This document shows, one piece after another, positions 1,611 through 43,400 of a DNA stretch of 44,963 nucleotides. The notes beneath the pieces were generated by a model that saw nothing but the letters and a program-made list of their open reading frames with translations, had not been told where the DNA came from and searched no databases. Every line of letters starts with the position of its first letter. Position 1 is the first letter of the stretch. The stretch lies in sequence record NC_073083.1; one strand, given 5' to 3'. The position numbers and the translations under genes are program-made. Source of the stretch: Escherichia phage BF9.

Positions 1611-1690
1611 AGCTAAATCCTCATAAATTGGTTGCATTCTCGATTGAGCGGTGCAATACTAAAACTCGACCAAATATGGGAGATGATAAC
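1611..1690 (+). promoter_or_regulatory. Candidate promoter for the rightward lipoprotein cassette, containing one TTGGTTGCA motif
   Basis: aaATTGGTTGCATtctcgattgagcggtgcAATACT gives TTGCAT-N17-AATACT, a sigma70-like spacing, immediately upstream of the lipoprotein gene. Confidence 0.35.
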
Positions 1691-1912
1691 ATGAAAACAT
1701 TAATTGTGATTTGTTCGGTTCTTCTGTCCGGCTGTGCGGTAGAACGTAACAACGGCGATTGCATTACGGTAGCTTACGGTAGCTGCATGTTGCGCTACGT
1801 CGATGGGCAAAAAGTGCCTGCCGGAGATGTGGATATGCGCTTCACTGGCCTGTCTTCGGATGCCGACGGCAATTTCTCAGGCACTGTATCAGTTAAATCA
1901 CGGGAGTGGTAA
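1691..1912 (+). CDS. Small secreted lipoprotein (73 aa); possible Cor/Llp-type superinfection-exclusion protein
   Basis: MKTLIVICSVLLSGC has a signal peptide and lipobox (LSGC). Sits next to the tail fiber/J genes on the opposite strand, as cor and llp do in T1- and T5-like phages. Start is the internal ATG of track ORF 1628..1912. Confidence 0.5.
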   Translation: MKTLIVICSVLLSGCAVERNNGDCITVAYGSCMLRYVDGQKVPAGDVDMRFTGLSSDADGNFSGTVSVKSREW

Positions 1913-1914
1913 TT

Positions 1915-2880
1915 ATGGGCGCTGGAATACTTATCGACTACAACGACGGGCGGCCTGTTATGGCGATAACTGCCGGTCTACGCGCTCCGTCATACTGCAC
2001 TACGTTTGATCAACGCTGCCAGTCAGACAAGACGCTGACCATTAACACCCCGCTAACCCCTGGGTCGGATCTTGTCGTTGCGCTCACGCGCCCGGTCGAA
2101 GTGATTGAGGTATTCGACCAAACGCTGGTTCTTCCAGATCCGTTCTACGTGACGTCGGTACAACGCAACGGGGATAGCGGCATTATTCTACGAGGCGCGG
2201 ACGCGTATAACGCATATAGTGGTCTCCCGCAATGGGCGGGGATAATTATGGAAGTGCTGCCGGTTGGGTCGCGCAATGCGGGCTTACTGGTGGCGAACTC
2301 GACTGACTTCACCGCGATATCGAACGTATCCCGGCTTATGACCTGCCGATATGCGCAGCGCGTGCATGTGAACGACAGTATGCCTTTACCGGTGGGTGGC
2401 ATCCCGTTCGCGCGCTGGGATAACGGCAACGTGTCGGTAGGATTTGATGGCAGTAATATCATCGTCCGCAATTCGTCTTATGGCGGGATCGACGACGTAG
2501 GGGCCGAAGTGGACCTGGATTTGGTTATCTTCAATAACACGCCACCATCTCCGGGGACCGGTATAACCATGACGAACAACCAGGGGCAGGTCACGTTCTC
2601 CACCGTGAATAAGCCGTTTGTTCTCAATTCCGTTATTAATATCGGCACTGGTGGTCAGAATATCGGTAACAGCCTCGTACAGCTTTCATATACCGGCGCG
2701 CTCATTGAGAACAACAGCGGATACAACCACGTGAGAATGAACGGAATACGCATGGCAGGCAACGTGGTTAGCGCGGCACGAAATCGCGTGATTGGTAACT
2801 ACTCACGACAGCAATTCCAGATGCCTAACCGCAACATAACCGCACCCACCCCGTTACTCGTCATCCCTAACATGTATTAA
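1915..2880 (+). CDS. Hypothetical protein (321 aa), Gly/Asn/Thr-rich, probably beta-rich; function unknown
   Basis: Track ORF 1906..2880; ATG at 1915 is preceded by GGGAGTGG. Co-oriented with the lipoprotein gene and followed by a hairpin terminator. Confidence 0.5.
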   Translation: MGAGILIDYNDGRPVMAITAGLRAPSYCTTFDQRCQSDKTLTINTPLTPGSDLVVALTRPVEVIEVFDQTLVLPDPFYVTSVQRNGDSGIILRGADAYNAYSGLPQWAGIIMEVLPVGSRNAGLLVANSTDFTAISNVSRLMTCRYAQRVHVNDSMPLPVGGIPFARWDNGNVSVGFDGSNIIVRNSSYGGIDDVGAEVDLDLVIFNNTPPSPGTGITMTNNQGQVTFSTVNKPFVLNSVINIGTGGQNIGNSLVQLSYTGALIENNSGYNHVRMNGIRMAGNVVSAARNRVIGNYSRQQFQMPNRNITAPTPLLVIPNMY

Positions 2881-2907: not shown

Positions 2908-5900
2908 TTACCACGTCCCAACTTTCACCCTACCTCCTCCAGGTAATGGCACGTTAATGCCGGTTGCGTCGATCTGTACCGACCCGCCGGAGAAACCGAA
3001 GTTACCAGTGGTCGCGAACAAGTTGCCGCGTACCGTTACGTTGTTGAACTCCGCCCAGCCATCCTTCGCGATACGCCAGCCGCTGCTACCTGGATTCCAG
3101 TTATTCGATTGCAGCGTGTCCGTGATCTGTGCGAAGTTGATGGACGCGTTCTTGATGCGCGCCGTGTCGATGTACACCTGACCGCCGTCAACGATAAACG
3201 CAGACGAAAGTGACCCATTCGACGGGTGCATGATGTAGAACTGGTCCGCCTTGAACGCGATGCTGGATTTAACCGCACCGCCTTCCACCACAACTGAAAG
3301 CTGCATACCGGCATCATAGTAAGTCCCGTTATACGTCACGCCAGCATTAAGGCTGTATGTGGCACTACCGCCAGCATGGTTAAACGAAGACGTCATCTTC
3401 TGCTCGATAGCTGCGGACTGCTGACCGAACTGCGCCGCTACCTGGGTCTTGTACTCCGCCAGCGCTCCCGCTACGTCTGCCGTTGCCGTTTGTACCTGCT
3501 GGATGGCAGCTTCCTGTTCCCCGAACTTAGCGGCAACAGTTTGTTGGTACTGGGCGAACGCTTGTTCGTGCGTGCTTTGCGCGGTCTGCAACGTGTGGAT
3601 CGCCGCTTCCGCATCGTCAAGGCGAGTACCGATCAACGTCTCAAGTTGCGCGACCGCCTTGTGGGCATCCGCCGCCACGTTATACGCTACCTTGATTTCT
3701 GCGTAGATCCCCTGGTACTCGGCGCGGGCGTTAAACAATTGCTGTGCGTCCGTGAGCATGGCTTCATAAATGCCTTGCGGCATGGTGTCGATCGCTTCCT
3801 GGAAGCGTTTACCATCCTCTGAAGTCAAGAACTCGTCGTCCAACCCCTTCATATACTCGTCAACTTTGTCACTCACCTGGCCTTCAAACGGGGCTGACCA
3901 GTCCGACAGGTTGCCGATTTTATCCGCTACGCGGGCGCGCAACTGCTGGTAGATCCCGAACTCCAGCGACGTTTGCGCATAGTCCGATCCCGGATATGGG
4001 ACGTTGGTCAAGAACTTCCATTCCGTTTCGCCCCGCTTGCGCACTTCAAGCTCGGTGTAAGAGATATCCGTCGCGGCGTTGTTGTGGTTCCACTTCCACA
4101 AAATTTGGTGAAGGCCCGAAATCGCGTTGGTGATGATAGGCGCGTTAAGCCCGCCGAGACGACCTTCGATCGGCGTGATGGCAGACGACACCCACGGGGA
4201 TGAAATCTCACCCATACCGATTGCGCGGACGCGTGCCTGGTAGTTACCGGAGAACACGTTAGGGATGTGAGCGCCGTTCGATGCCGTGCGAGGGATGTTC
4301 ACCCAGTCGTTACCCCACTGGATTTCCATATTCTGCAAGCTGGTACGTCGCCACTGGATTTCATATACAACGGCATCCTTCACCGGCGGGAAAACAATAT
4401 CCACGTTGGTGATTAGCTGGCCTTGCGATGAAATCTGCGACGGGGTGATGGTCACGGACTCCGGCCCCTTCATTACGCCGTCAGGTACTTGCGTAAAGAT
4501 GCCTGGGTCAAGGCGAGCGCCATTATCAACGGCATCATATTTGCTATCGTTGTACTCGATCCCGCGCACTGAAAAAGTGCTGGTAGAGTCGTCATATTCC
4601 AGGTCGGTGATGCGGAACTTCTGCAACTGGATATCATCGCCATCAACGCAAAACGGCTGGTCTGGAATCGGGTCGGCGTCCAGTGCGGTTTTTAGCGTAA
4701 CCTTGTTGCCGTTGACGCTGGCGATCTCGCGAGTCTCCACATTACCGCTATCGGTGCGTACCAGGAATTTATCGCCAGGGCGGAACGTGATTTCGCTGTC
4801 TGTGTTCAGCACCGTCCGCGTGCCCGGATCTGACAACAGGCGACCGCCGCGTGTCTCGAAGCCGCCAGAAATGTTTGTATCGGCGATCGCTACTACGCTA
4901 CCCGGAATAAAGAATAGTCCTTCCATGCCAACCTTAAAGCTAACTTGCTGGTCAAGCTGGTTGGAGATTAGCGCCCAGTGCCCCCGGCGTTGCGCTTCTG
5001 ATTCACGCGTACAGCCGATCGCCGTTATATCGAGACGGTTAATCTTATGGCGGCGTACCAGTTCGACACGTTGCCCCGTTGCGATGGCATCCTCATAGTG
5101 GTTCTTCGGGTTGCCGTATGCTACCGCGAACGTGGAATAGCGAGTTTTCTGGCTCCCTGACGCGTAGTCGAATCTGCCATCAATAACAGAGGCGTTGGTG
5201 ATAGTGTGCGATACCGCTGCGACCGGCTGGTCACTTACGATATTCAACATCTGGTTGCCCCACCAGGTCATACCGGCAAAGATGGCGGCTAAATCCTTAA
5301 GCACGGTCCAGGCGTCGGTCTGCGACTGGATGTACATATCATTCTTAAATCGGATTTCCTGCCCGCCGTTGCCGTCGCTGACAAGCTGGTCACAGCGCTG
5401 CGCAATCTGGTAGAGCGCGTACCGGTTCAGCATTTGCGGCTTGATCCTACGACCGAGGCCGAAGCGCTCAGTAATACAAATATCGTACCAGTGCCACGCA
5501 GGGTTGTCCGTCCAGGCGCGTTTAAACGTGCCATCCCAGTCGCCCGAATATGTATGATTAATCGGGTCGTAGTTGTTCGGAACCAGCACTTTGCGGCCTT
5601 TGCACTTGATGGACACCCGAGGGATGTTCTGAAACGCTTTAGCGTCGAACTCCACGAACAACAGCGCGGTTAGCGGGTAGCGCAGGCGGGCGTCGATAAT
5701 CTCAGTGATTGATTGCACCTGAATATCGTTCACCACTTTTGCCGATGTGGAATCAGCCGTTGTGCGGTGCACTTCCACGCGCCAGCCAGTGTTAACGTTC
5801 GGCGGTAACTCGATGCGGTGGTCTCGCTCGTACAGCGACATTGTTTTACCAACGGCAGCAAATGTAAACTCGCGCGGATCTGCGTTATCCGTATACACAA

Positions 5901-6354
5901 CGATTTTATAGTCGATGCGCCCGCCTACCAGGTCGCCATTATCTTCGTTGGTGTACAAAGCCGGAATGCCGATTCGAATGCGCACGGCGTCAAGACTTGT
6001 GTCATTAATCTGGCGCACCCACGGCGTGCCGTTTTCCAGTTTTACGCCTACTGTTTGCTCACTTTCCACCGCGGAAAATCCGTGGATTACATCCTGGTGC
6101 TGTGTGCCTGGGCGGAACTCCACGCGCGCGCCGGGGAAGTTTTCCGACAGGTCGGCGTTCTGGATCGGTGTGCCGTCCAGGTATACGCGCTGCCGTAATT
6201 CGTTAGGGTCGGGAATACCTTCGAATTCCCCTTCACCCAGCGCAAGCAAGATGCGGATTTTAGCCAGGGAATGCAGGCTGTCCGGCGTTTCCTGCGGGGT
6301 GTGCTGTTTGCCTCCGCCGCCTTTATGGCCTGTAACGTCGTAGATAATCGTCAT
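2908..6354 (-). CDS. Central tail fiber / host specificity protein (lambda gpJ-like), 1148 aa
   Basis: Size, position after the K and I homologs, and conserved gpJ-type N-terminus MTIIYDVTGHKGGGGK...LLALGEGEFEG. Confidence 0.85.
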   Translation of the reverse strand: MTIIYDVTGHKGGGGKQHTPQETPDSLHSLAKIRILLALGEGEFEGIPDPNELRQRVYLDGTPIQNADLSENFPGARVEFRPGTQHQDVIHGFSAVESEQTVGVKLENGTPWVRQINDTSLDAVRIRIGIPALYTNEDNGDLVGGRIDYKIVVYTDNADPREFTFAAVGKTMSLYERDHRIELPPNVNTGWRVEVHRTTADSTSAKVVNDIQVQSITEIIDARLRYPLTALLFVEFDAKAFQNIPRVSIKCKGRKVLVPNNYDPINHTYSGDWDGTFKRAWTDNPAWHWYDICITERFGLGRRIKPQMLNRYALYQIAQRCDQLVSDGNGGQEIRFKNDMYIQSQTDAWTVLKDLAAIFAGMTWWGNQMLNIVSDQPVAAVSHTITNASVIDGRFDYASGSQKTRYSTFAVAYGNPKNHYEDAIATGQRVELVRRHKINRLDITAIGCTRESEAQRRGHWALISNQLDQQVSFKVGMEGLFFIPGSVVAIADTNISGGFETRGGRLLSDPGTRTVLNTDSEITFRPGDKFLVRTDSGNVETREIASVNGNKVTLKTALDADPIPDQPFCVDGDDIQLQKFRITDLEYDDSTSTFSVRGIEYNDSKYDAVDNGARLDPGIFTQVPDGVMKGPESVTITPSQISSQGQLITNVDIVFPPVKDAVVYEIQWRRTSLQNMEIQWGNDWVNIPRTASNGAHIPNVFSGNYQARVRAIGMGEISSPWVSSAITPIEGRLGGLNAPIITNAISGLHQILWKWNHNNAATDISYTELEVRKRGETEWKFLTNVPYPGSDYAQTSLEFGIYQQLRARVADKIGNLSDWSAPFEGQVSDKVDEYMKGLDDEFLTSEDGKRFQEAIDTMPQGIYEAMLTDAQQLFNARAEYQGIYAEIKVAYNVAADAHKAVAQLETLIGTRLDDAEAAIHTLQTAQSTHEQAFAQYQQTVAAKFGEQEAAIQQVQTATADVAGALAEYKTQVAAQFGQQSAAIEQKMTSSFNHAGGSATYSLNAGVTYNGTYYDAGMQLSVVVEGGAVKSSIAFKADQFYIMHPSNGSLSSAFIVDGGQVYIDTARIKNASINFAQITDTLQSNNWNPGSSGWRIAKDGWAEFNNVTVRGNLFATTGNFGFSGGSVQIDATGINVPLPGGGRVKVGTW

Positions 6355-16907: not shown

Positions 16908-17612
16908 TTACTCGTCGTCGCCCATCTTAGCGATGATTTCACCTGCCTGTTTCGTAAGGTCAGTGATACCGAAGCTGTGGCCCATAGTGATTTTCGACTT
17001 CACATCTTCGACAACCTGCGTCGGTTTGCTAGGCGCGCCACCGGCTGGCGTGCCAGCCAGGACGGATGCAAAATCGGCGTTATTACGGAACTCTTTTTCA
17101 AGCTCTTCCATAGTCAGCGCGGACGGTTTGCCATCCTGCAAGACACGCACTTTCAAGCTGCCGTCTTCGCCGTCCTCCAGCGTCAGGCGGTCCATTACGT
17201 GGCGTTGCATGATCCCAGCATTCTTACCGAACAGCTTCGATGCCAGGTCTTTGGCAGCGCTGCCGATGGTGAGATCGTGGATCTGCTTGCGGTAGGCTTC
17301 GATTTTTCCCGATGTGTCTGCTTCGTGTTTCGCAAACTTATCTTTCCAGGACTTGTCGATCGCTTCGAGGTCGCCATTTTTGCGCGCGGCGGCTTCCTCT
17401 TTCTCTTTCGCAAGGCGCTCAGCTTCGGCGCGGCGTTCGGCTTCTGCTTTCTTCTCGCTCACCAGCTTCGCGTTGTTGTCTTTCAGACCCTTGATTTCCG
17501 CCTGTACTTCTTCTGCGGTCATGAAAGTTGATTTATACCCGTCGCCATCGGCAACAAAAAGCGCCTTCATACCTTCCGGCAACGCGTCATATTCTGCTTT
17601 AGTAAGTTTCAT
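16908..17612 (-). CDS. Capsid scaffolding protein (putative)
   Basis: Internal ATG (MKLTKAEYDALPEG) of track ORF 16908..17759 with RBS GGGGGA; acidic, Lys/Glu/Ala-rich coiled-coil protein directly upstream of the capsid gene. Confidence 0.6.
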   Translation of the reverse strand: MKLTKAEYDALPEGMKALFVADGDGYKSTFMTAEEVQAEIKGLKDNNAKLVSEKKAEAERRAEAERLAKEKEEAAARKNGDLEAIDKSWKDKFAKHEADTSGKIEAYRKQIHDLTIGSAAKDLASKLFGKNAGIMQRHVMDRLTLEDGEDGSLKVRVLQDGKPSALTMEELEKEFRNNADFASVLAGTPAGGAPSKPTQVVEDVKSKITMGHSFGITDLTKQAGEIIAKMGDDE

Positions 17613-17699
17613 GCTATCCCCCTGGGATTGTGGCAGAGCGGGCCACCCGCTCGACTTCACGCTTCTAATATTATCAGCGATAAAAATAATCGCAAAATT

Positions 17700-17750
17700 C
17701 GCTTGCAATCCGCGTATTGGTTGCACTATATTGGTTGCACACCAACCACG
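17700..17750 (+). promoter_or_regulatory. Promoter with tandem TTGGTTGCA motifs driving the rightward gene inside the head module
   Basis: TTGCAAtccgcgtaTTGGTTGCACTATATTGGTTGCACaccaacc gives TTGCAA-N17-CTATAT. The same 21 bp core (CTATATTGGTTGCACACCAAC) recurs in reverse orientation near 28085. Confidence 0.5.
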
Positions 17751-17761
17751 AGGACACACAA

Positions 17762-18526
17762 ATGAGACTGACTAAAGACATTAAAAACCAGATCCTGGCT
17801 AACATCCTGCGCGACCACGAAATAGCTACCGAAGCCAAATCAATCATGATGGACTCACGCGACCTGGCGTACGCCATTACGCTGGACTGTATGCCGGAAG
17901 GCATTCGCACATTCGCCGAGCTACTCGCGCGCATTGAAGCAATCGGCGATGATCCGTCGCAGATGTACGGCGTCTGTGTATACACCAATAAGGCGACGTA
18001 TAGACATGACGCCGACAACCCATATGGTATAGGCTGCGTTTACGACGCCACTTTCGAAATCAACGCAGGCGGAAACGTCCGTACCGTGTCATTGAGCGGA
18101 GACGGACACCGATTCCGAGTACATCGCGGATACTGGGAGTATAAATACATGAATAAACTGTCTCCCGATCTCGGCGATATTGTGCCAGGGTATGAGGAAA
18201 TTTTGTTAGCGTCAGTGTGCGAAGTCGACGACGACGGGAAAGCGCTGCCGATATATCTTCCGCGCGGTCGAGTAGACTACCCTGCGGACCATGATTTCTG
18301 TAAGCGCCTGGACCGTAACGACAAGGCCCGCCGCGAGTTGCGAGCTAAGTATGACGCGTTCAAACTAACCGTTACCGGCGTGCTGGATATGCACAATACC
18401 GATAAGAAGCTGATCAAGGCGTGGCCTGAAGTGGAACAGTTCATTCCGCACCCTGACAAGCCGAAGTCCACGGCGGTGGCGCTGGACGTGAAGACGCTAA
18501 ACGAGATTTGCGGTATTCCGCGCTAA
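17762..18526 (+). CDS. Hypothetical protein (254 aa) on the opposite strand within the head gene block; accessory (moron-like) gene
   Basis: Internal ATG (MRLTKDIKNQ) of track ORF 17717..18526 with RBS GAGGA; own promoter upstream and terminator downstream; no motif recognised. Confidence 0.6.
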   Translation: MRLTKDIKNQILANILRDHEIATEAKSIMMDSRDLAYAITLDCMPEGIRTFAELLARIEAIGDDPSQMYGVCVYTNKATYRHDADNPYGIGCVYDATFEINAGGNVRTVSLSGDGHRFRVHRGYWEYKYMNKLSPDLGDIVPGYEEILLASVCEVDDDGKALPIYLPRGRVDYPADHDFCKRLDRNDKARRELRAKYDAFKLTVTGVLDMHNTDKKLIKAWPEVEQFIPHPDKPKSTAVALDVKTLNEICGIPR

Positions 18527-18527
18527 C

Positions 18528-18550
18528 AAAAGGGGGCCATCACGGCCCCC
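18528..18550. terminator. Bidirectional intrinsic terminator
   Basis: aaaaGGGGGCCatcacGGCCCCCgaattatttt: GC stem with T-rich tails on both strands. Confidence 0.6.
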
Positions 18551-18779
18551 GAATTATTTTCTGCAACTCCAGCACTTGCGCCCTCAGCTTCGCACCACAT
18601 TCCATATTTTTCACGTCAATCATCAAATCTTCGTCGGGGTCCGCGGACGGGTTATCGAACTTGCACGGCGGTCGCAGTGCCGACTCCGTTAGCGGCATCA
18701 ACGGCACGTTGCTTGATCCGCACGCGCTCAGCATCAAAACTACAATCAGGGCGGTTAGGGCGCGTAACATATTTAACAA
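18540..18779 (-). CDS. o-spanin (Rz1-like outer-membrane lipoprotein)
   Basis: MLNMLRALTALIVVLMLSACGSS has a lipobox; the mature part is Pro-rich with conserved Cys. The gene lies in the +1 frame overlapping the 3' end of the i-spanin gene and extends beyond it. RBS AAGAGG. Confidence 0.7.
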   Translation of the reverse strand: MLNMLRALTALIVVLMLSACGSSNVPLMPLTESALRPPCKFDNPSADPDEDLMIDVKNMECGAKLRAQVLELQKIIRGP

Positions 18780-18981
18780 CCTCTTTCGTGATAGTCCGGT
18801 ATTCTACGTCGCGGGCTTGTTCGGCCTGCACGGAGCGCTCAATAACTTTAGTTTGCTGCCGTTGGGCTTTCGCTTGCGCTTCTTGCGCCGCTCTCGCCTC
18901 AACGCCAGTGCGGTAGGAATCACCCTGCCAGAATCCAACCGCCAGACCTATAACCAGTCCGATCGCCGCGTATTTAATCAC
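18652..18981 (-). CDS. i-spanin (Rz-like)
   Basis: N-terminal transmembrane segment (AAIGLVIGLAVGFW) followed by a Gln/Ala-rich coiled-coil. Start is uncertain: the track uses TTG at 19011; I prefer GTG at about 18981, which has CAGGGGG upstream. Confidence 0.6.
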   Translation of the reverse strand: MIKYAAIGLVIGLAVGFWQGDSYRTGVEARAAQEAQAKAQRQQTKVIERSVQAEQARDVEYRTITKEVVKYVTRPNRPDCSFDAERVRIKQRAVDAANGVGTATAVQVR

Positions 18982-20077
18982 GCCATAGCCCCCTGTTTTT
19001 AAGCTGTGCAATAGTCATCAATTCGCCCGTATCGGTGAACATCTTCGGCACTTTCACGCCTCGCATAATCTGGTCTGCGCGCTGCACCCCATATAATTCC
19101 TCCAGAATATGGCGCGGCTGGCGCTGCACCCATGAGAAGAAATCAGTCTGCGCGTCGACCTGCTCACTCAGCAATCTGCCCGCTTCAGCCTTCAGTGCCG
19201 GACGCTTACCACTGGGCCAATCTTCCATACCTTTGACTTTCCACGTCTCCGTCGAACGGCAGCAATAATGCAGCTTGCCAGGACCAGCGCCATATTGTGA
19301 CCCCGCCACCACTTTCCCGCCGCGCTTTCCTTTGGTGTCGGGAGTAACATCAACTGGATAAAACAGGCGATCGCGTAGCTGGCACATGGGAGAAGTATGC
19401 GTGTCCAATGTAGCCAACCATTGGCGACCTTCGAGAATATCGTCATTAGCTTTTACCATTAATTCGCGGGCGGTTGCCGCATAGTGGTTGACCGCGGACT
19501 TAACAACGCTTGAGATTGCTTGCGCACTACGACCGCCTAGCGCGCGCCTCACGTCCGCAATAATTTCCATAGTCGGCTTGCCCTGGATGAATCCAGCGCG
19601 CACCTGATTGCCGATCTGCGTCCTGGTCCACTCGGAAAGTGAGTCAGGCCATTGCATCATGGTGTTACCCTGGAACGGGTTTTTCATTGCAGTCGCTGCG
19701 ATCTGCGCGCCGGTCACAACACCCACCACCTCGACAGCCGGTACGGCGACCGCTGGCTGGATCGCTGCCGTTAATGTGTCGGCGAGATAATCAGCCTCGG
19801 TGTCTGCGAACTCCTGAAGGCTTTCAGCCAGCGCCTTAAACTCGGTGCGCAGTTCCGTTTTGACGGTCTTGTCGAGTTGCGTTAAAAGTGTGGTAAGTGC
19901 CTTGTTGCTCATGGACTTTTTGCCATCAAGTAACTCGGTCAGCTTACCCAGTAAAGCGGGCCGGAACTTCTCCCACATAGCCAGCACCCTTCGCGCCTGG
20001 TCATTGCTCAGGCGCTGGGTGAAGATGTGACGGCGAATCATTCGATCCGCCATATATTGATTAATTGTCTTCGCCAT
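18974..20077 (-). CDS. Head morphogenesis / minor head protein (phage Mu gpF-like)
   Basis: 367 aa directly downstream of the portal gene; WLATLDTHTSPMC-type region typical of the Mu F family. Confidence 0.7.
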   Translation of the reverse strand: MAKTINQYMADRMIRRHIFTQRLSNDQARRVLAMWEKFRPALLGKLTELLDGKKSMSNKALTTLLTQLDKTVKTELRTEFKALAESLQEFADTEADYLADTLTAAIQPAVAVPAVEVVGVVTGAQIAATAMKNPFQGNTMMQWPDSLSEWTRTQIGNQVRAGFIQGKPTMEIIADVRRALGGRSAQAISSVVKSAVNHYAATARELMVKANDDILEGRQWLATLDTHTSPMCQLRDRLFYPVDVTPDTKGKRGGKVVAGSQYGAGPGKLHYCCRSTETWKVKGMEDWPSGKRPALKAEAGRLLSEQVDAQTDFFSWVQRQPRHILEELYGVQRADQIMRGVKVPKMFTDTGELMTIAQLKNRGLWRD

Positions 20078-24996: not shown

Positions 24997-25233
24997 ATTA
25001 ATTCACTTCCAGATTATGGGACCGAGGACAATATACCACGGTCCCTATTGCGGCGGGTTATAGCAATTCGCAAATAACCATGCCGATAAAAGCCGCGGTG
25101 GTCCAGATCGCTAATACCCAAATATCTTTACGTGCCATCTTGATTACTCCTCCAGTTGATTGGTTGCAGTATGGCCCCTGTGTTGGTTGCGAGTCAAGCA
25201 ATAAAAAGCCCGGTTAATTCCGGGCTTAATTGT

Positions 25234-25401
25234 TTACGCTGCGGGGCCAGATTCCTCCTGCGGTGGTGGGCTTGGCAGCTTCGCATCGAAGACCCCGGCG
25301 TGGTTGATAGAGTCCGCGATGATAGCGCGTGCGCCTGGGTCTTCGGTTTTAGCCAGTGCGGCAAGCGCGTCCGCATTATGATCAAGAATACTTTTTAACA
25401 T
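25234..25401 (-). CDS. Hypothetical small protein (55 aa), not in ORF track
   Basis: ATG 16 nt after the endolysin stop with RBS GAGGTGA; followed by a hairpin and T-run terminator at about 25203..25230 on the minus strand. Confidence 0.4.
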   Translation of the reverse strand: MLKSILDHNADALAALAKTEDPGARAIIADSINHAGVFDAKLPSPPPQEESGPAA

Positions 25402-26768: not shown

Positions 26769-27040
26769 CGTATTGCCCCTTCCGGCTTGCCAATATGGCG
26801 CGCCCAGGCACGCGCCACGAAGTAATTGCGGAACACCCGACCGCCTATCTCAAAGCGGTTGTGCATCAGCATATCACGAATCACAGCCGACACGGGATAC
26901 TACCTCCAGGTGTGGGTTATGGCGTGGCGCCCAGTGCGCTTGCTTAGTAGCCATATTACGTAGTTTAACCTGGTAATGGGTTACGGCTACAACCAGATAC
27001 AAATCACGGGTTAATTTATCCCGCACTAAATCGAATTTAT

Positions 27041-27352
27041 TCATTTCAGAATCACCGAGCGCGGGTCAATGGCGTTCATGCTGCCGTCTGGTTCGACACG
27101 GATGAATCCTACACCGTATTCCTGCGCATGGCGCTGTGCATTCGTCACGGCATCAAAGCGATTGACTATCTCACGCGTGGCATGGCGAATTTTAGATTGC
27201 TGGTTATGGTCACACCCGCTTTCGTCGATCTCGTCGGCTGTAAGGTTGTCGCCGTCGCATACCGTAGCGATTCCGTAGTGGGTGTAGTCGTCATAGCAGG
27301 ACACGAGGTCGATAAACTCCTGCGAACATCCTGCGAATAGTGCTGGGGTCAT
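27041..27352 (-). CDS. Hypothetical early protein (103 aa)
   Basis: Internal ATG (MTPALFAGCSQEF) of track ORF 27041..27454; the start overlaps the upstream stop (ATGA) and has RBS GGAGAC. Confidence 0.45.
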   Translation of the reverse strand: MTPALFAGCSQEFIDLVSCYDDYTHYGIATVCDGDNLTADEIDESGCDHNQQSKIRHATREIVNRFDAVTNAQRHAQEYGVGFIRVEPDGSMNAIDPRSVILK

Positions 27353-27776: not shown

Positions 27777-28067
27777 TTATTTCGCAAGCTGGGCGAATAG
27801 TTCGCGCTGGGCTTTAATCCGGGCGACGTTTGTCACTGCCGTCTCGCCGATCCCGAAGCGATACGCCAGGCGCTCACGGGCAAAGGCAAGCGCGTAAGCC
27901 CTGATAGCCGCGCGCAACGGCTCGGGGTCTTCCATGCCCGCGGTCGCATCCATGATCGCAAACCAGGTCGGAGCTACCAGGCGCTCCCACGGTGCTCTGC
28001 CGTTGGTGTATCTCACTTCGACCGGTTTTGCCACGGCCATTGTGTAATTCCAGATTAATGCTCTCAT
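27777..28067 (-). CDS. Hypothetical early protein (96 aa)
   Basis: Track ORF; first gene downstream of the 28068..28600 control region; RBS GAGGA. Confidence 0.45.
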   Translation of the reverse strand: MRALIWNYTMAVAKPVEVRYTNGRAPWERLVAPTWFAIMDATAGMEDPEPLRAAIRAYALAFARERLAYRFGIGETAVTNVARIKAQRELFAQLAK

Positions 28068-28445: not shown

Positions 28446-28601
28446 TTTATGCAGTAAAACTGCATAACTATTCATTATATTTACACTACACGGCAACCAA
28501 TACGACCGGATAAAAACACTCAAAATGGCAACCAATGCGCGCAAATTTTAATCTTTTAGCGATATGGGAATTCCCATATCGGCAACCAATACACGCACAA
28601 A

Positions 28602-30876: not shown

Positions 30877-31206
30877 TTACTTCGAAGTTTTGTTATTGCG
30901 TACCCAGGAGCGCACGGTGCTCTGATTAATTCCCGTCAACTCGGCGATCATCGCCCATGACTTCCCCTCATCGCGCAAACGGATAACCTGCTTTTTGTAT
31001 TCTTCCATTTCTTCATTGTGTTTTTGCAGCTTGCTTGCTGCCGTGCCGTTGAGCAATTCCAGCTTCGCGGTAAGCTCCTTCTCCGCACGCGATAATCTGG
31101 ACACTTCAAATAACAGAGTATCCACCGCATTTGTGTAATACCAGGATTTACCCGCTTCGCCGCGGATTGCATTAGATAACACTTCAATTGCTTCTTTGAT
31201 ATTCAT
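30877..31206 (-). CDS. Helix-turn-helix DNA-binding protein (putative transcriptional regulator)
   Basis: 109 aa; C-terminal GKSWAMIAELTGINQSTVRSWVRNN is HTH-like; first gene of the leftward operon. Confidence 0.5.
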   Translation of the reverse strand: MNIKEAIEVLSNAIRGEAGKSWYYTNAVDTLLFEVSRLSRAEKELTAKLELLNGTAASKLQKHNEEMEEYKKQVIRLRDEGKSWAMIAELTGINQSTVRSWVRNNKTSK

Positions 31207-31608
31207 AATTCAGTCTCCTGTTGGTTAATGGCCAACGAAACTACACCCAAAACTGCACGGTGTCAAATCCTTTGGATATTGAAACGGGCGCGCACGCGTG
31301 TAATAATAATTCCCGTCTCATTGTCTCTTATTGGTTAGCGCCGGTGCATTTTGCCTCGGCGCTTTTTTTTTTAAATTAGTTGTTGACACCCATCCTGCAA
31401 CCAATCTATTATTCACCCCGTCGACAGGATGCAGGACGCAAACTGGAGAGGGGCAACGCAGGGGCCGGATCGAAGTGTCAGGATTCCCAACCGTGATTAT
31501 ATAACCAGGTCCACTACCCGAACGGGAGAACGCGTAACCTGGCAATATGTTAAGGCCACCGACGAAGTTAACTGCCGACACCTAAACTAAACCAATCGGA
31601 GATATACC
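31207..31608. promoter_or_regulatory. Divergent control region between the leftward and rightward early operons
   Basis: Plus strand: TTGACAcccatccTGCAACCAATcTATTAT (about 31374..31405). Minus strand: TTGACA-N17-TAGTTT followed by the near-palindrome TTGGCCATTAACCAA (about 31221..31235). About 400 bp with no ORF of 60 codons or more that is not antisense to neighbouring genes. Confidence 0.5.
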
Positions 31609-32127
31609 ATGTTTGAGCAAATCGTAAACCTGATCACTCGCGGCGTAGTAGCACTGGAAACCATCGCTAAACATTATGAAACCGTTGGCGCTGCCGTTGG
31701 TAAGCAGGAAGACAAGAAGCCGTCTAAGGCCAAAAAAGAAGTTGTCGAAGATGACGACGATGAAGCCGAAGACGAAAAACCGGCGAAAACTAAAAAAGCC
31801 CCGGCGAAGGGTAAGGCCAAAAAAGAAGTCGTAGAAGATGACGACGACGAAGACGCCGAAGACGAAAAACCGGCTAAGGCTAAAAAAGCACCGGCGAAAG
31901 GCAAAGGTAAGAAAGATGCCGATCCGCTGGCGGAGATGCGCGACGAAATCAAACAGTATGCCGCGATTATCGCCGGTGGTGATGACGACGATGCGAACGA
32001 CGAATTCGACGACCTGCTGGAATCGTTCGAGATCAAATCAATCGCCAAGCTGGAAGATGACGACGTCGAAGACTTCCACACAGAGTTAAAAGAAATCGTC
32101 GAAACCTATTTCGAACTGGAAGATTAA
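31609..32127 (+). CDS. Highly charged acidic/basic repeat protein (172 aa); first rightward early gene
   Basis: Two copies of KKEVVEDDDDE(D)AEDEKPAKxKKAPAKGK, then a DDDD-rich C-terminus; strong terminator follows. Confidence 0.6.
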   Translation: MFEQIVNLITRGVVALETIAKHYETVGAAVGKQEDKKPSKAKKEVVEDDDDEAEDEKPAKTKKAPAKGKAKKEVVEDDDDEDAEDEKPAKAKKAPAKGKGKKDADPLAEMRDEIKQYAAIIAGGDDDDANDEFDDLLESFEIKSIAKLEDDDVEDFHTELKEIVETYFELED

Positions 32128-41460: not shown

Positions 41461-41541
41461 ATTGGTTGCATAATCATATTGGTTGCATTATATTGAGGGT
41501 GTCCGGTTTGGACGCCCTTTTTAATACCTGGAGACGACACG
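41461..41541 (+). promoter_or_regulatory. Promoter with tandem TTGGTTGCA motifs
   Basis: aaATTGGTTGCATaatcataTTGGTTGCATTATATTgag gives TTGCAT-N17-TATATT. Confidence 0.5.
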
Positions 41542-42920: not shown

Positions 42921-43387
42921 AACTACTGATTTGTGATCTGGATGGCGTTATTAACGGTTCAAGTGATGCGCGCGCCGACCTGGTGCCGGGGATAAAAACG
43001 AAATCAACATTTTGGGCGAAGTGGCACAAAGCGCACGTACGCGAAGACCTGAACATGGATATGCTGCCGCTGTTGCGCATGTACAAAGAGCAAGGCTTCG
43101 AGATCGCGTATCTGACGAACCGGCAGCGCGAATGTTGGGACACCACCGCCGAGCAATTGGAGGTCTTCCCCGTAGGTCGATTGTTCATGCGCCACATGCT
43201 GGACGACACCCCGCCGCCAGAGTTTAAGGCGTGCGCCGTTTTCAAAATGGTCTGCTATGCGGACGTGTCGGAACTGGTCATCATTGAAGACTGTCCGAAG
43301 AACATCGCGGCAATTCGTCGGGCGTGTGGTGATTTGGTCCCGAAAATTTACGCAATAAACGTTGCAAAATTCACTTGCAACCAATAG
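42917..43387 (+). CDS. HAD-superfamily hydrolase-like protein (possible nucleotidase/phosphatase)
   Basis: N-terminal LLICDLDGVI matches HAD motif I (DxDG). Confidence 0.45.
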   Translation: MKLLICDLDGVINGSSDARADLVPGIKTKSTFWAKWHKAHVREDLNMDMLPLLRMYKEQGFEIAYLTNRQRECWDTTAEQLEVFPVGRLFMRHMLDDTPPPEFKACAVFKMVCYADVSELVIIEDCPKNIAAIRRACGDLVPKIYAINVAKFTCNQ

Positions 43388-43400
43388 GTTGGTTGCACTA
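43370..43400 (+). promoter_or_regulatory. Promoter/operator with inverted TGCAACCAA / TTGGTTGCA pair
   Basis: cacTTGCAACCAAtaggTTGGTTGCACTATAGtt: an inverted repeat that also gives TTGCAA-N17-CTATAG. Confidence 0.45.

Follow-up and report, generated by a model that had tools for sequence, protein, structure and literature searches.

Nmad5 of a Dhillonvirus is encoded by a dispensable plus-strand gene, probably an accessory cassette, in a slot with variable cargo among the head genes

The window, that is, the whole 44,963-nt stretch of DNA analysed here (Escherichia phage BF9, NC_073083.1), carries among its leftward head genes a plus-strand gene that is real and dispensable, but that has already been catalogued as Nmad5. 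It appears probable that this region constitutes an autonomous accessory cassette, made up of promoter, ribosome-binding site, gene and terminator, which encodes the Dhillonvirus Nmad5, and the accessory-cassette interpretation offered by a first-pass annotation of this DNA is largely right. What is new is a description of the slot and of its alternative cargo, the recognition of a phage-wide TTGGTTGC element, evidence for a relocation of nmad5 from an early operon, and negative evidence on an enzymatic role of Nmad5.

The window represents a Dhillonvirus, a virulent siphovirus of E. coli, and is about 95% identical to phage GeorgBuechner. A search with a 1-kb region returned 156 matching phage records, the best being that of Escherichia phage GeorgBuechner (95.8% identity), and phages SM_S22, SM_A8 and KS_S9 were among the matches at 92-94% DNA identity. 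The slot is bounded on its left by the head scaffolding gene (16911..17612, minus strand; 100% amino acid identity to GeorgBuechner bas16_0008) and on its right by the overlapping o-spanin and i-spanin genes (18540..19011, minus strand), after which come the minor-capsid, portal and terminase genes, all of them leftward. Between the scaffold and spanin genes, and antisense to the head genes, lies nmad5 (17762..18526, plus strand; ATG at 17762, TAA at 18524-18526), a gene of 254 codons whose coordinates and features had been given correctly at first pass. Its start was placed at ATG 17762 rather than at an upstream TTG (17717) because the N-terminus MRLTK is conserved across the family. The product matches Pfam PF18757 (Nmad5, nucleotide modification associated domain 5) with an E-value of 1.3e-54 and a score of 185.8 bits (cutoff 27), residues 1-253 aligning to profile positions 1-206, and phrog_1965 with an E-value of 2.8e-60, while the match in NCBIfam was sub-threshold only (E 0.076; 13.1 bits, cutoff 247). 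The protein had been described as one of unknown function, but it is not unclassified: it is Nmad5, the record of one close relative already bears the annotation nucleotide-modification-associated protein, and an orthologue has already been studied. The Pfam score, together with a dN/dS of 0.13 among seven Dhillonvirus orthologues, indicates that nmad5 is not a chance reading frame, and the latter value implies that the gene is functional and under purifying selection. The family is widespread, as a HMMER scan of 1.84 billion representative proteins recovered 525 representatives at the 50% clustering level.

Full-length nmad5 is present in 144 of the 157 records that carry the Dhillonvirus capsid gene (about 92%), and a comparison of presence and absence at this site, as proposed at first pass, revealed a range of arrangements. 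The slot holds nmad5 alone in the window, SM_S22 and GeorgBuechner, and a 104-109-aa phrog_24635 gene plus nmad5 in SM_A8, where the added 104-aa gene stands between the promoter and a full-length nmad5, and in JL1, where nmad5 is truncated. A 172-aa gene with an internal duplication accompanies nmad5 in SM_W22 and a 170-aa gene does so in EP23; in TheodorHerzl a 172-aa homologue of the latter replaces nmad5, and Teewinot and JL1 possess nmad5 remnants after internal deletion. The gene shared by EP23 and TheodorHerzl is homologous to domain II of the bacterial beta sliding clamp (E 4.5e-8 against residues 140-282 of E. coli DnaN; the Pfam match is weaker, E 7e-4). All slot variants share one promoter region, ahead of the first gene, and one hairpin, behind the last; in the outgroup Eiauvirus phage eiAU-183 no insert separates the head-morphogenesis gene from the scaffold gene.

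Such variation bears directly on the idea that Nmad5 is a head-assembly, structural or morphogenetic protein which is encoded on the other strand by chance. This explanation can only draw on position, namely that nmad5 lies between the scaffold and the head-morphogenesis/spanin genes and that in one IMG/VR contig (L023) an antisense Nmad5 gene likewise sits beside a capsid gene; the head module of that contig, capsid gene included, is however unrelated to that of the window, which argues against a conserved structural partnership. Furthermore, some viable natural isolates lack nmad5 or carry it in truncated form, and its engineered deletion is viable (PMC11846954), so that it is not required for growth as a structural role would demand. 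With homologues residing in replication or early operons of other phages, and with an Eiauvirus head module devoid of Nmad5, a structural role is scarcely credible. In keeping with the accessory reading, Nmad5 showed no homology to any structural protein shared by all relatives.

Morons are said to have been described by Hendrix and colleagues as autonomous promoter-gene-terminator units located between late genes of lambdoid phages, and the layout of nmad5 had been likened to them. The likeness stands in so far as nmad5 probably forms a self-contained, rightward cassette, equipped with promoter-like and terminator-like signals of its own, separates genes that are neighbours in a related genus, is dispensable and varies in presence among close relatives. 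It does not extend to the remaining attributes: nmad5 belongs to a virulent phage, which leaves no place for expression from a prophage, it is near-universal in its genus, and at 0.50-0.53 it is only slightly poorer in GC than its flanks (0.55-0.58). Because it is near-core and only mildly lower in GC, nmad5 is not a sporadic foreign moron, and unlike a moron it probably came from the phage's own early region rather than from outside.

Ahead of nmad5, a sigma-70-like promoter is predicted at 17703..17732 on the plus strand (TTGCAA-18 nt-TATATT, 9/12 consensus positions). Because a generic promoter scan was not enriched (2 sites versus 1.9 expected from shuffled sequence), this match alone is not significant; a promoter function is instead suggested by conservation and by recurrence of the composite element. 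The site is kept in all relatives examined, including one with a 63%-identical homologue, it precedes whichever gene stands first in the slot in ten relatives, and its layout TTGCAw-N8-TTGGTTGCAy-TATAnT is found again at 41468-41497 and 43371-43400. Two TTGGTTGCA repeats on the plus strand, one in the promoter spacer (17717-17725) and one just past the -10 hexamer (17731-17739), look like operator sites. In addition, the 20-mer TATATTGGTTGCACACCAAC (17727..17746, plus strand) is shared with the upstream region of an early-region gene (27780-28067, minus strand), its context being identical at sites 17731 (+) and 28097 (-). The tandem TTGGTTGCA promoter of the first-pass annotation is thus upheld as regards the repeats, which are real, and the promoter-like site, which is conserved, but the motif is phage-wide and not private to nmad5. 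The ribosome-binding site GAGGA (17750..17754, plus strand), located 7 nt ahead of the ATG, is present as had been claimed, and the leader AACAACGAGGA also occurs upstream of the Nmad5 gene of Eiauvirus eiAU-183. When folded, a leader hairpin (GGTTG/CAACC) was no more stable than shuffled sequence (z = -1.2), and no RNA families were found by Rfam in 17300-18900.

Downstream of nmad5, the GC-rich hairpin GGGGGCC-ATCAC-GGCCCCC (18532..18550, both strands) starts 5 nt past the nmad5 stop, overlaps the o-spanin stop codon and is predicted to act as a terminator for nmad5 on the plus strand and for the convergent spanin genes on the minus strand. It consists on both strands of 7-8 GC pairs followed by a T-run, it folds with -17.8 and -19.9 kcal/mol on the two strands (z-scores of -2.5 and -2.1), and its stem is kept in divergent relatives, including those without nmad5. 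The proposal of a bidirectional terminator accordingly agrees with a hairpin that, judged by its sequence, is terminator-like in either direction.

The motif in the nmad5 promoter region is part of a broader pattern. There are 11 exact copies of the 9-mer TTGGTTGCA in the window, as compared with about 0.3 expected, and 29 matches when up to one mismatch is allowed, as compared with 11.4 +/- 3.4 in shuffles; the 8-mer TTGGTTGC occurs 22 times. Eighteen of these 22 sites are intergenic (p = 3e-13), non-coding DNA making up 13% of the genome, and 12 are located within 115 bp upstream of same-strand genes, every one of which is non-structural. The genes concerned are nmad5, three small early-region genes, the Dam-like methylase operon, another small gene and a lipoprotein cassette located on the plus strand within the tail module. 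In this genome the element marks non-structural operons (helicase region, methylase operon, lipoprotein cassette); none of the 22 window sites is upstream of a structural gene, and the only two in the structural block (7085 and 13538) both fall within opposite-strand coding sequence. Eiauvirus, with 23 sites, and one contig of a sister group of metagenomic phages show an enrichment of the motif as well. This distribution suggests that the TTGGTTGC sites are binding sites of a phage regulator, embedded in host-type promoters, for which a 109-aa protein with a sigma-70 region-4-like HTH (30877-31206) is a candidate. On this basis nmad5 would belong to the early or middle transcription class and would be expressed separately from the late head operon, to which it is antisense, an assignment of promoter class and timing that draws on motif sharing.

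The genomic position of Nmad5 in related phages provides a possible account of how the gene arrived among head genes. In eiAU-183 Nmad5 is encoded by O197_32, which belongs to the early or middle region, downstream of the primase-helicase gene, and has its own TTGCAC-17-TATAGT site. In the sister group of metagenomic phages (L013 and L016), a 27% identical Nmad5 is encoded in a rightward replication operon in the order acidic protein, Nmad5, DUF2800 nuclease, Enc34-type ssDNA-binding protein and DNA polymerase A, and in a further contig (L014) the homologue is likewise found in an early or replication region. A match in BFVD to a 232-aa protein of Escherichia phage C130_2 suggests that this sister group is C130_2-like. 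The window possesses the sister-group operon, with the acidic protein and without Nmad5. Because the Eiauvirus and C130_2-like homologues sit in early or replication regions, these arrangements suggest that nmad5 relocated from an early operon to the head module within the Dhillonvirus lineage, and a move within the phage fits better than an origin from foreign DNA given that the GC content is only slightly below that of the flanks. No second Nmad5 was found in the window by the family model; a 232-aa early-operon gene (hyp48), which occupies the place taken by Nmad5 in the sister phages and had been considered as an Nmad5 paralogue, was rejected, its product being an acidic, Lys/Asp/Glu-rich protein.

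At the protein level, the family is characterized by an N-terminal xRLT, G104, G113, P167, the helix motif T213-x3-L217-x3-W221-P-E223, P229 and a C-terminal LNxxCG(I/L)P, and the window protein possesses all signature residues (R2, L3, T4, G104, G113, P167, T213, L217, W221, P222, E223, P229, L246, N247, G251 and P253). With 254 residues against a 206-position profile, the Dhillonvirus Nmad5 has about 48 additional residues in a central beta subdomain, and sequence entropy among 34 cluster representatives identified codons 51-120 (17912..18121, plus strand) as a lineage-specific part of this subdomain containing the variable patches 51-95 and 116-120. The dN/dS in these patches is 0.54 versus 0.07 elsewhere, a value which, as the patches were picked after their variability had been seen, is no proof of positive selection. 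At the DNA level nmad5 has diverged more than the capsid gene, with identities of 80-90% in 100 of 137 records compared to 4 of 157. The protein has a GRAVY of -0.43 and a pI of 5.8, without any long hydrophobic stretch.

An AlphaFold2 model built on a 50-sequence alignment reached a pLDDT of 81 and a pTM of 0.80, an earlier model from 28 sequences having been too poor (pLDDT 59). The modelled protein comprises three N-terminal helices, the small central beta subdomain, a long helix (178-209), two short helices bearing the T213/L217/WPE motif, and a low-confidence tail with a short terminal helix (243-249); the low confidence of this C-terminal tail may just reflect poor modelling, while the helix that contains K216 (T213-x3-L217-x3-W221-P-E) is modelled with a confidence of about 93. 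The improved model matched no solved or known enzyme fold, structure matches in BFVD were to other Nmad5 proteins only, a Foldseek search of the poorer model against the PDB returned nothing under E = 2.6, and PDB sequence searches with either the single protein or the profile gave only noise. Remote-homology and structure-prediction searches, which had been recommended at first pass, have consequently retrieved a Pfam family and no solved fold.

The gene has been studied in relation to the Tmn defence in work on three Dhillonviruses, SM_S22, SM_A8 and KS_S9 (Yamashita et al. 2025, Commun Biol 8:290; PMC11846954); their nmad5 is the same gene at the same locus as that of the window, and nothing essential differs. 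Tmn-escape mutants share one nmad5 substitution, reported as K216E in SM_A8 and as "K296E" in SM_S22 (PMC11846954). The SM_S22 record contains a 334-aa CDS whose annotated start is 80 codons too far upstream, within the promoter, and which overlaps the scaffold gene, and because this annotation is 80 aa too long its residue 296 is residue 216 of the real 254-aa protein. Reversion of the substitution restored Tmn sensitivity, in tests performed in SM_S22 only, and its engineering into a phage gave resistance, although the escape mutants had further mutations, one of them, in SM_A8, affecting the adjacent scaffold gene (PMC11846954, Table 1). The same work established that Tmn sensitivity persists in the viable nmad5 deletion, that cloning of nmad5 failed, apparently as a consequence of toxicity, that phages with wild-type nmad5 are Tmn-sensitive (SM_A8, and SM_S22 without its anti-Tmn gene), and that the actual anti-Tmn gene is ORF35 and not nmad5 (PMC11846954). 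An anti-defence function, one of those suggested at first pass, is thus not supported in the case of Tmn, given that phages with the wild-type gene are sensitive, that deletion has no effect and that only K216E escapes.

More recently, it has been described that Tmn is a membrane decamer directly activated by RIIB, an early, replisome-associated protein of T2, in a 2026 preprint in which Dhillonvirus is unmentioned (PMC13001434). RIIB of T2/T4 and Nmad5 are alike in that both are non-essential and non-structural and point mutations in both escape Tmn, and the early, replisome-associated nature of RIIB is mirrored by the presence of Nmad5 homologues in replication operons. On the other hand, the two are unrelated in sequence or fold, and loss of RIIB results in escape and RIIB alone activates Tmn, whereas deletion of nmad5 provides no escape, from which it follows that Nmad5 is not the sole Tmn trigger.

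The name Nmad5 reportedly derives from the gene neighbourhoods examined by Iyer et al. in 2013 in a comparative genomics study. A neighbourhood with nucleotide-modification genes, on which the family name is based, is not encountered at the window locus; membership of PF18757 stands regardless, because neighbourhood is a contextual and not a sequence property. A role in DNA modification is implied by the Pfam name and was assumed by Yamashita et al. (PMC11846954), in which case Nmad5 would itself be an enzyme that modifies DNA bases, or an indispensable subunit of such an enzyme, and Tmn would sense the Nmad5-dependent modification. Support for this comes from Pseudomonas M6-, SN1- and Yua-like phages (PMC9476957), and from the Yuavirus phage Aergia, whose homologue matches phrog_1965, since in these phages the Nmad5 gene is located inside a thymidine-hypermodification cassette. 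The Pseudomonas proteins are homologous to that of the window (38-41% identity in the C-terminal third), but theirs are co-transcribed with aGPT-Pplase, 5-hmdU kinase, radical-SAM and PLP enzymes, whereas the window gene stands alone, antisense among head genes, in a phage without a hypermodification pathway: neither the window nor the annotated GeorgBuechner genome encodes a hydroxymethylase, 5-hmdU kinase, aGPT-Pplase or other hypermodification gene, the only DNA-modification genes in either being those for Dam- and Dcm-like methylases, at a distance of over 20 kb from nmad5.

Across the family, most contexts are similarly without such genes. The Nmad5 gene immediately follows N in the pL operon of HK542 and Stx-converting lambdoid phages and elsewhere lies inside the tail module of a Vibrio myovirus, in replication operons of several small siphoviruses, and in head modules; among the 84 neighbour proteins at 12 IMG/VR loci no family recurs more than three times, so there is no consistent neighbour family, and a 5-hmdU DNA kinase and a thymidylate-synthase-like gene lie nearby at only one of the 12 loci, the single instance in this set that speaks for a modification enzyme. 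A few polar residues are invariant in the family, which counts in favour of an enzyme, and the conserved R2, T213, E223 and N247 might together make up a small catalytic or ligand-binding site, but the model resembles no known enzyme fold and neither a catalytic fold nor a catalytic motif was recognized. Moreover, Dhillonviruses are comparatively sensitive to type I and II restriction-modification (PMC8594841), and sensing of the modification by Tmn predicts relief upon nmad5 deletion, which does not occur (PMC11846954). That Nmad5, a widespread protein, is mobile between modules, usually apart from modification genes and without an enzyme-like fold argues against the term "DNA modification enzyme", a label that is unsupported for the nmad5 of the window, and we regard the enzymatic explanation as improbable.

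When these observations are read jointly, the most likely mechanism, albeit one that we advance only tentatively, is that Nmad5 is a partner-binding rather than a catalytic protein. In this view it would be soluble and cytoplasmic, and would probably act by binding and not by catalysis; the conserved N-terminus and the T213-L217-WPE-P229 helices would make up a helical core, and a flexible tail would end in the invariant peptide LNxxCG(I/L)P. Core and tail peptide together may bind a conserved partner, of host origin or associated with the replisome, with specificity tuned by the lineage-variable beta subdomain, and such engagement would place Nmad5 on the pathway sensed by the membrane NTPase Tmn; the charge reversal of K216E might then create a new interaction that either masks the trigger or blocks Tmn. 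Partner binding would explain the cloning toxicity, the placement in replication operons, and a gain-of-function escape by K216E without escape by deletion.

A competing explanation, possible if rather unlikely, is that Nmad5 is a dedicated anti-defence protein directed against a system other than Tmn, for instance a nuclease-based or restriction-type one. This would explain why nmad5 is accessory, fast-evolving and found in anti-restriction hot spots: the gene is lost in some lineages, moves between genome modules, encodes a variable surface patch with raised dN/dS and is co-located with DNA-hypermodification genes, which are themselves anti-restriction. The lambdoid Nmad5 genes moreover occupy the slot directly after the N gene, which in lambda and P22 houses ral-type and anti-exclusion genes. 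These points have to be set against termini that are strongly conserved across phages of Escherichia, Pseudomonas, Vibrio, Bordetella and Roseobacter, a pattern which, like the cloning toxicity, better fits a housekeeping target than a patchily distributed defence. No nmad5-deletion phenotype has been reported on any defence system, and PADLOC, a collection that covers defence and not anti-defence proteins, returned no match for Nmad5.

Returning to partner binding, a more far-reaching version of it, which we consider doubtful, is that Nmad5 acts as a non-enzymatic adaptor which uses its invariant terminal motifs to attach to a conserved component of the host or replisome, at a point monitored by Tmn, while the slot would serve as a plug-and-play locus for replication-interfering cargo (Nmad5, the beta-clamp domain II fragment and phrog_24635) with early-gene timing conferred by a TTGGTTGC-binding phage regulator. 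The evidence on Nmad5 points future work to its binding partners. In the window the K216 codon (AAG, 18407..18409, plus strand) specifies the wild-type residue at the position of the K216E escape, and K216 and its surrounding helix are identical between the window and the SM phages, which helps to predict how this phage will behave on Tmn hosts. Dhillonvirus is used in phage-therapy engineering, and K216 is the one residue in nmad5 through whose change such phages escape plasmid-borne Tmn.

Among the Dhillonviruses, the interval from promoter to terminator between the scaffold and spanin genes, occupied by nmad5 in the window, can also hold other cargo. In EP23 (1154-1666) and TheodorHerzl (1140-1658) this slot contains a gene for a protein of 170-172 aa with homology to the bacterial beta sliding clamp, namely to its domain II (E 4.5e-8 against residues 140-282 of E. 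coli DnaN). The protein is a phage-encoded clamp fragment; in TheodorHerzl its gene stands in place of nmad5. Further cargo variants are located in SM_W22 (1668-2186), SM_A8 (1668-1982) and JL1 (1124-1453). In one variant the product is 172 aa long, contains an internal tandem repeat made by duplication of about 34 residues, and has no family match; another variant is a phrog_24635 protein of 104-109 aa. A conserved GGGGCGAAAGCCCC tetraloop hairpin, not followed by a run of T residues, lies between the cargo genes and nmad5.

If the hairpin at 18532-18550, the putative terminator of nmad5 and of the spanin genes, also stops leftward late transcription, a minus-strand promoter would be needed for the scaffold gene. 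Within 17613-17710 (minus strand), a TTGCGA-16-TAATAT site, which the consensus promoter scan did not call, precedes the scaffold gene by about 50 nt. The hexamer TTGCAA at 17703-17708 is palindromic and could serve as a shared -35 element of both divergent promoters.

The unrelated siphovirus contig IMGVR_UViG_3300034069_000566 is an independent instance of the layout of a cassette within the head module. At 5001-5986 this contig carries an Nmad5 gene and a 127-aa gene, both antisense, with a PF09950 major capsid gene on one side and a DUF4054 gene on the other. The window also contains a second antisense cassette (1628-2880, plus strand), situated within the tail module. In it, a phage lipoprotein gene (PF24052, E 6e-21) and a DUF6453 gene encoding 324 aa lie behind a promoter-like TTGGTTGCA site. 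Its location beside the receptor-binding genes suggests that the lipoprotein acts in superinfection exclusion.

The sequence TTGGTTGC(A) is strongly over-represented across the window, for example at 1628, 25160/25183, 28097/28128, 28500/28535/28589, 31404, 34299/34315, 38520, 41462/41479 and 43384/43389, and 18 of 22 sites are intergenic (p = 3e-13). The element frequently occurs in pairs and is located upstream of non-structural genes. One contig of the sister group is likewise enriched in it, as is the outgroup Eiauvirus eiAU-183, with 23 sites. The element is probably a binding site for a phage regulator. A candidate binder is the 109-aa protein encoded at 30877-31206 (minus strand) by the gene heading the leftward helicase operon, whose C-terminal HTH resembles sigma-70 region 4 (HTH_23, 5.6e-7; Sigma70_r4_2, 1.4e-6). 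At 25160-25235 (plus strand), between two leftward genes, a TTGGTTGC pair precedes a AAGCCCGG-TTAATT-CCGGGCTT hairpin, after which no plus-strand ORF was found; this element could represent a bidirectional terminator or specify a short antisense transcript. Shortly downstream of the primase-helicase gene, three TTGGTTGCC sites occur with even spacing (28500-28589, minus strand), and eiAU-183 has a six-site cluster at the equivalent position (26877-27161). The layout is iteron-like and may correspond to an origin of replication or to a regulatory hub.

The GenBank nmad5 CDS of SM_S22 (PP627283.1, 1422-2426) is 80 codons too long, running over the promoter and the scaffold gene, and K296E (SM_S22) and K216E (SM_A8) in the literature therefore denote one and the same residue. 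In the rightward replication operon, the first sizeable gene (31609-32127, plus strand) encodes a highly acidic 172-aa protein with Lys/Asp/Glu repeats, and the GeorgBuechner annotation of 232 aa is probably too long. Preceding the internal ATG, the window has a TAA stop (31588-31590) in place of the TTA of GeorgBuechner, and in the sister group the internal Met is where the homologue begins.
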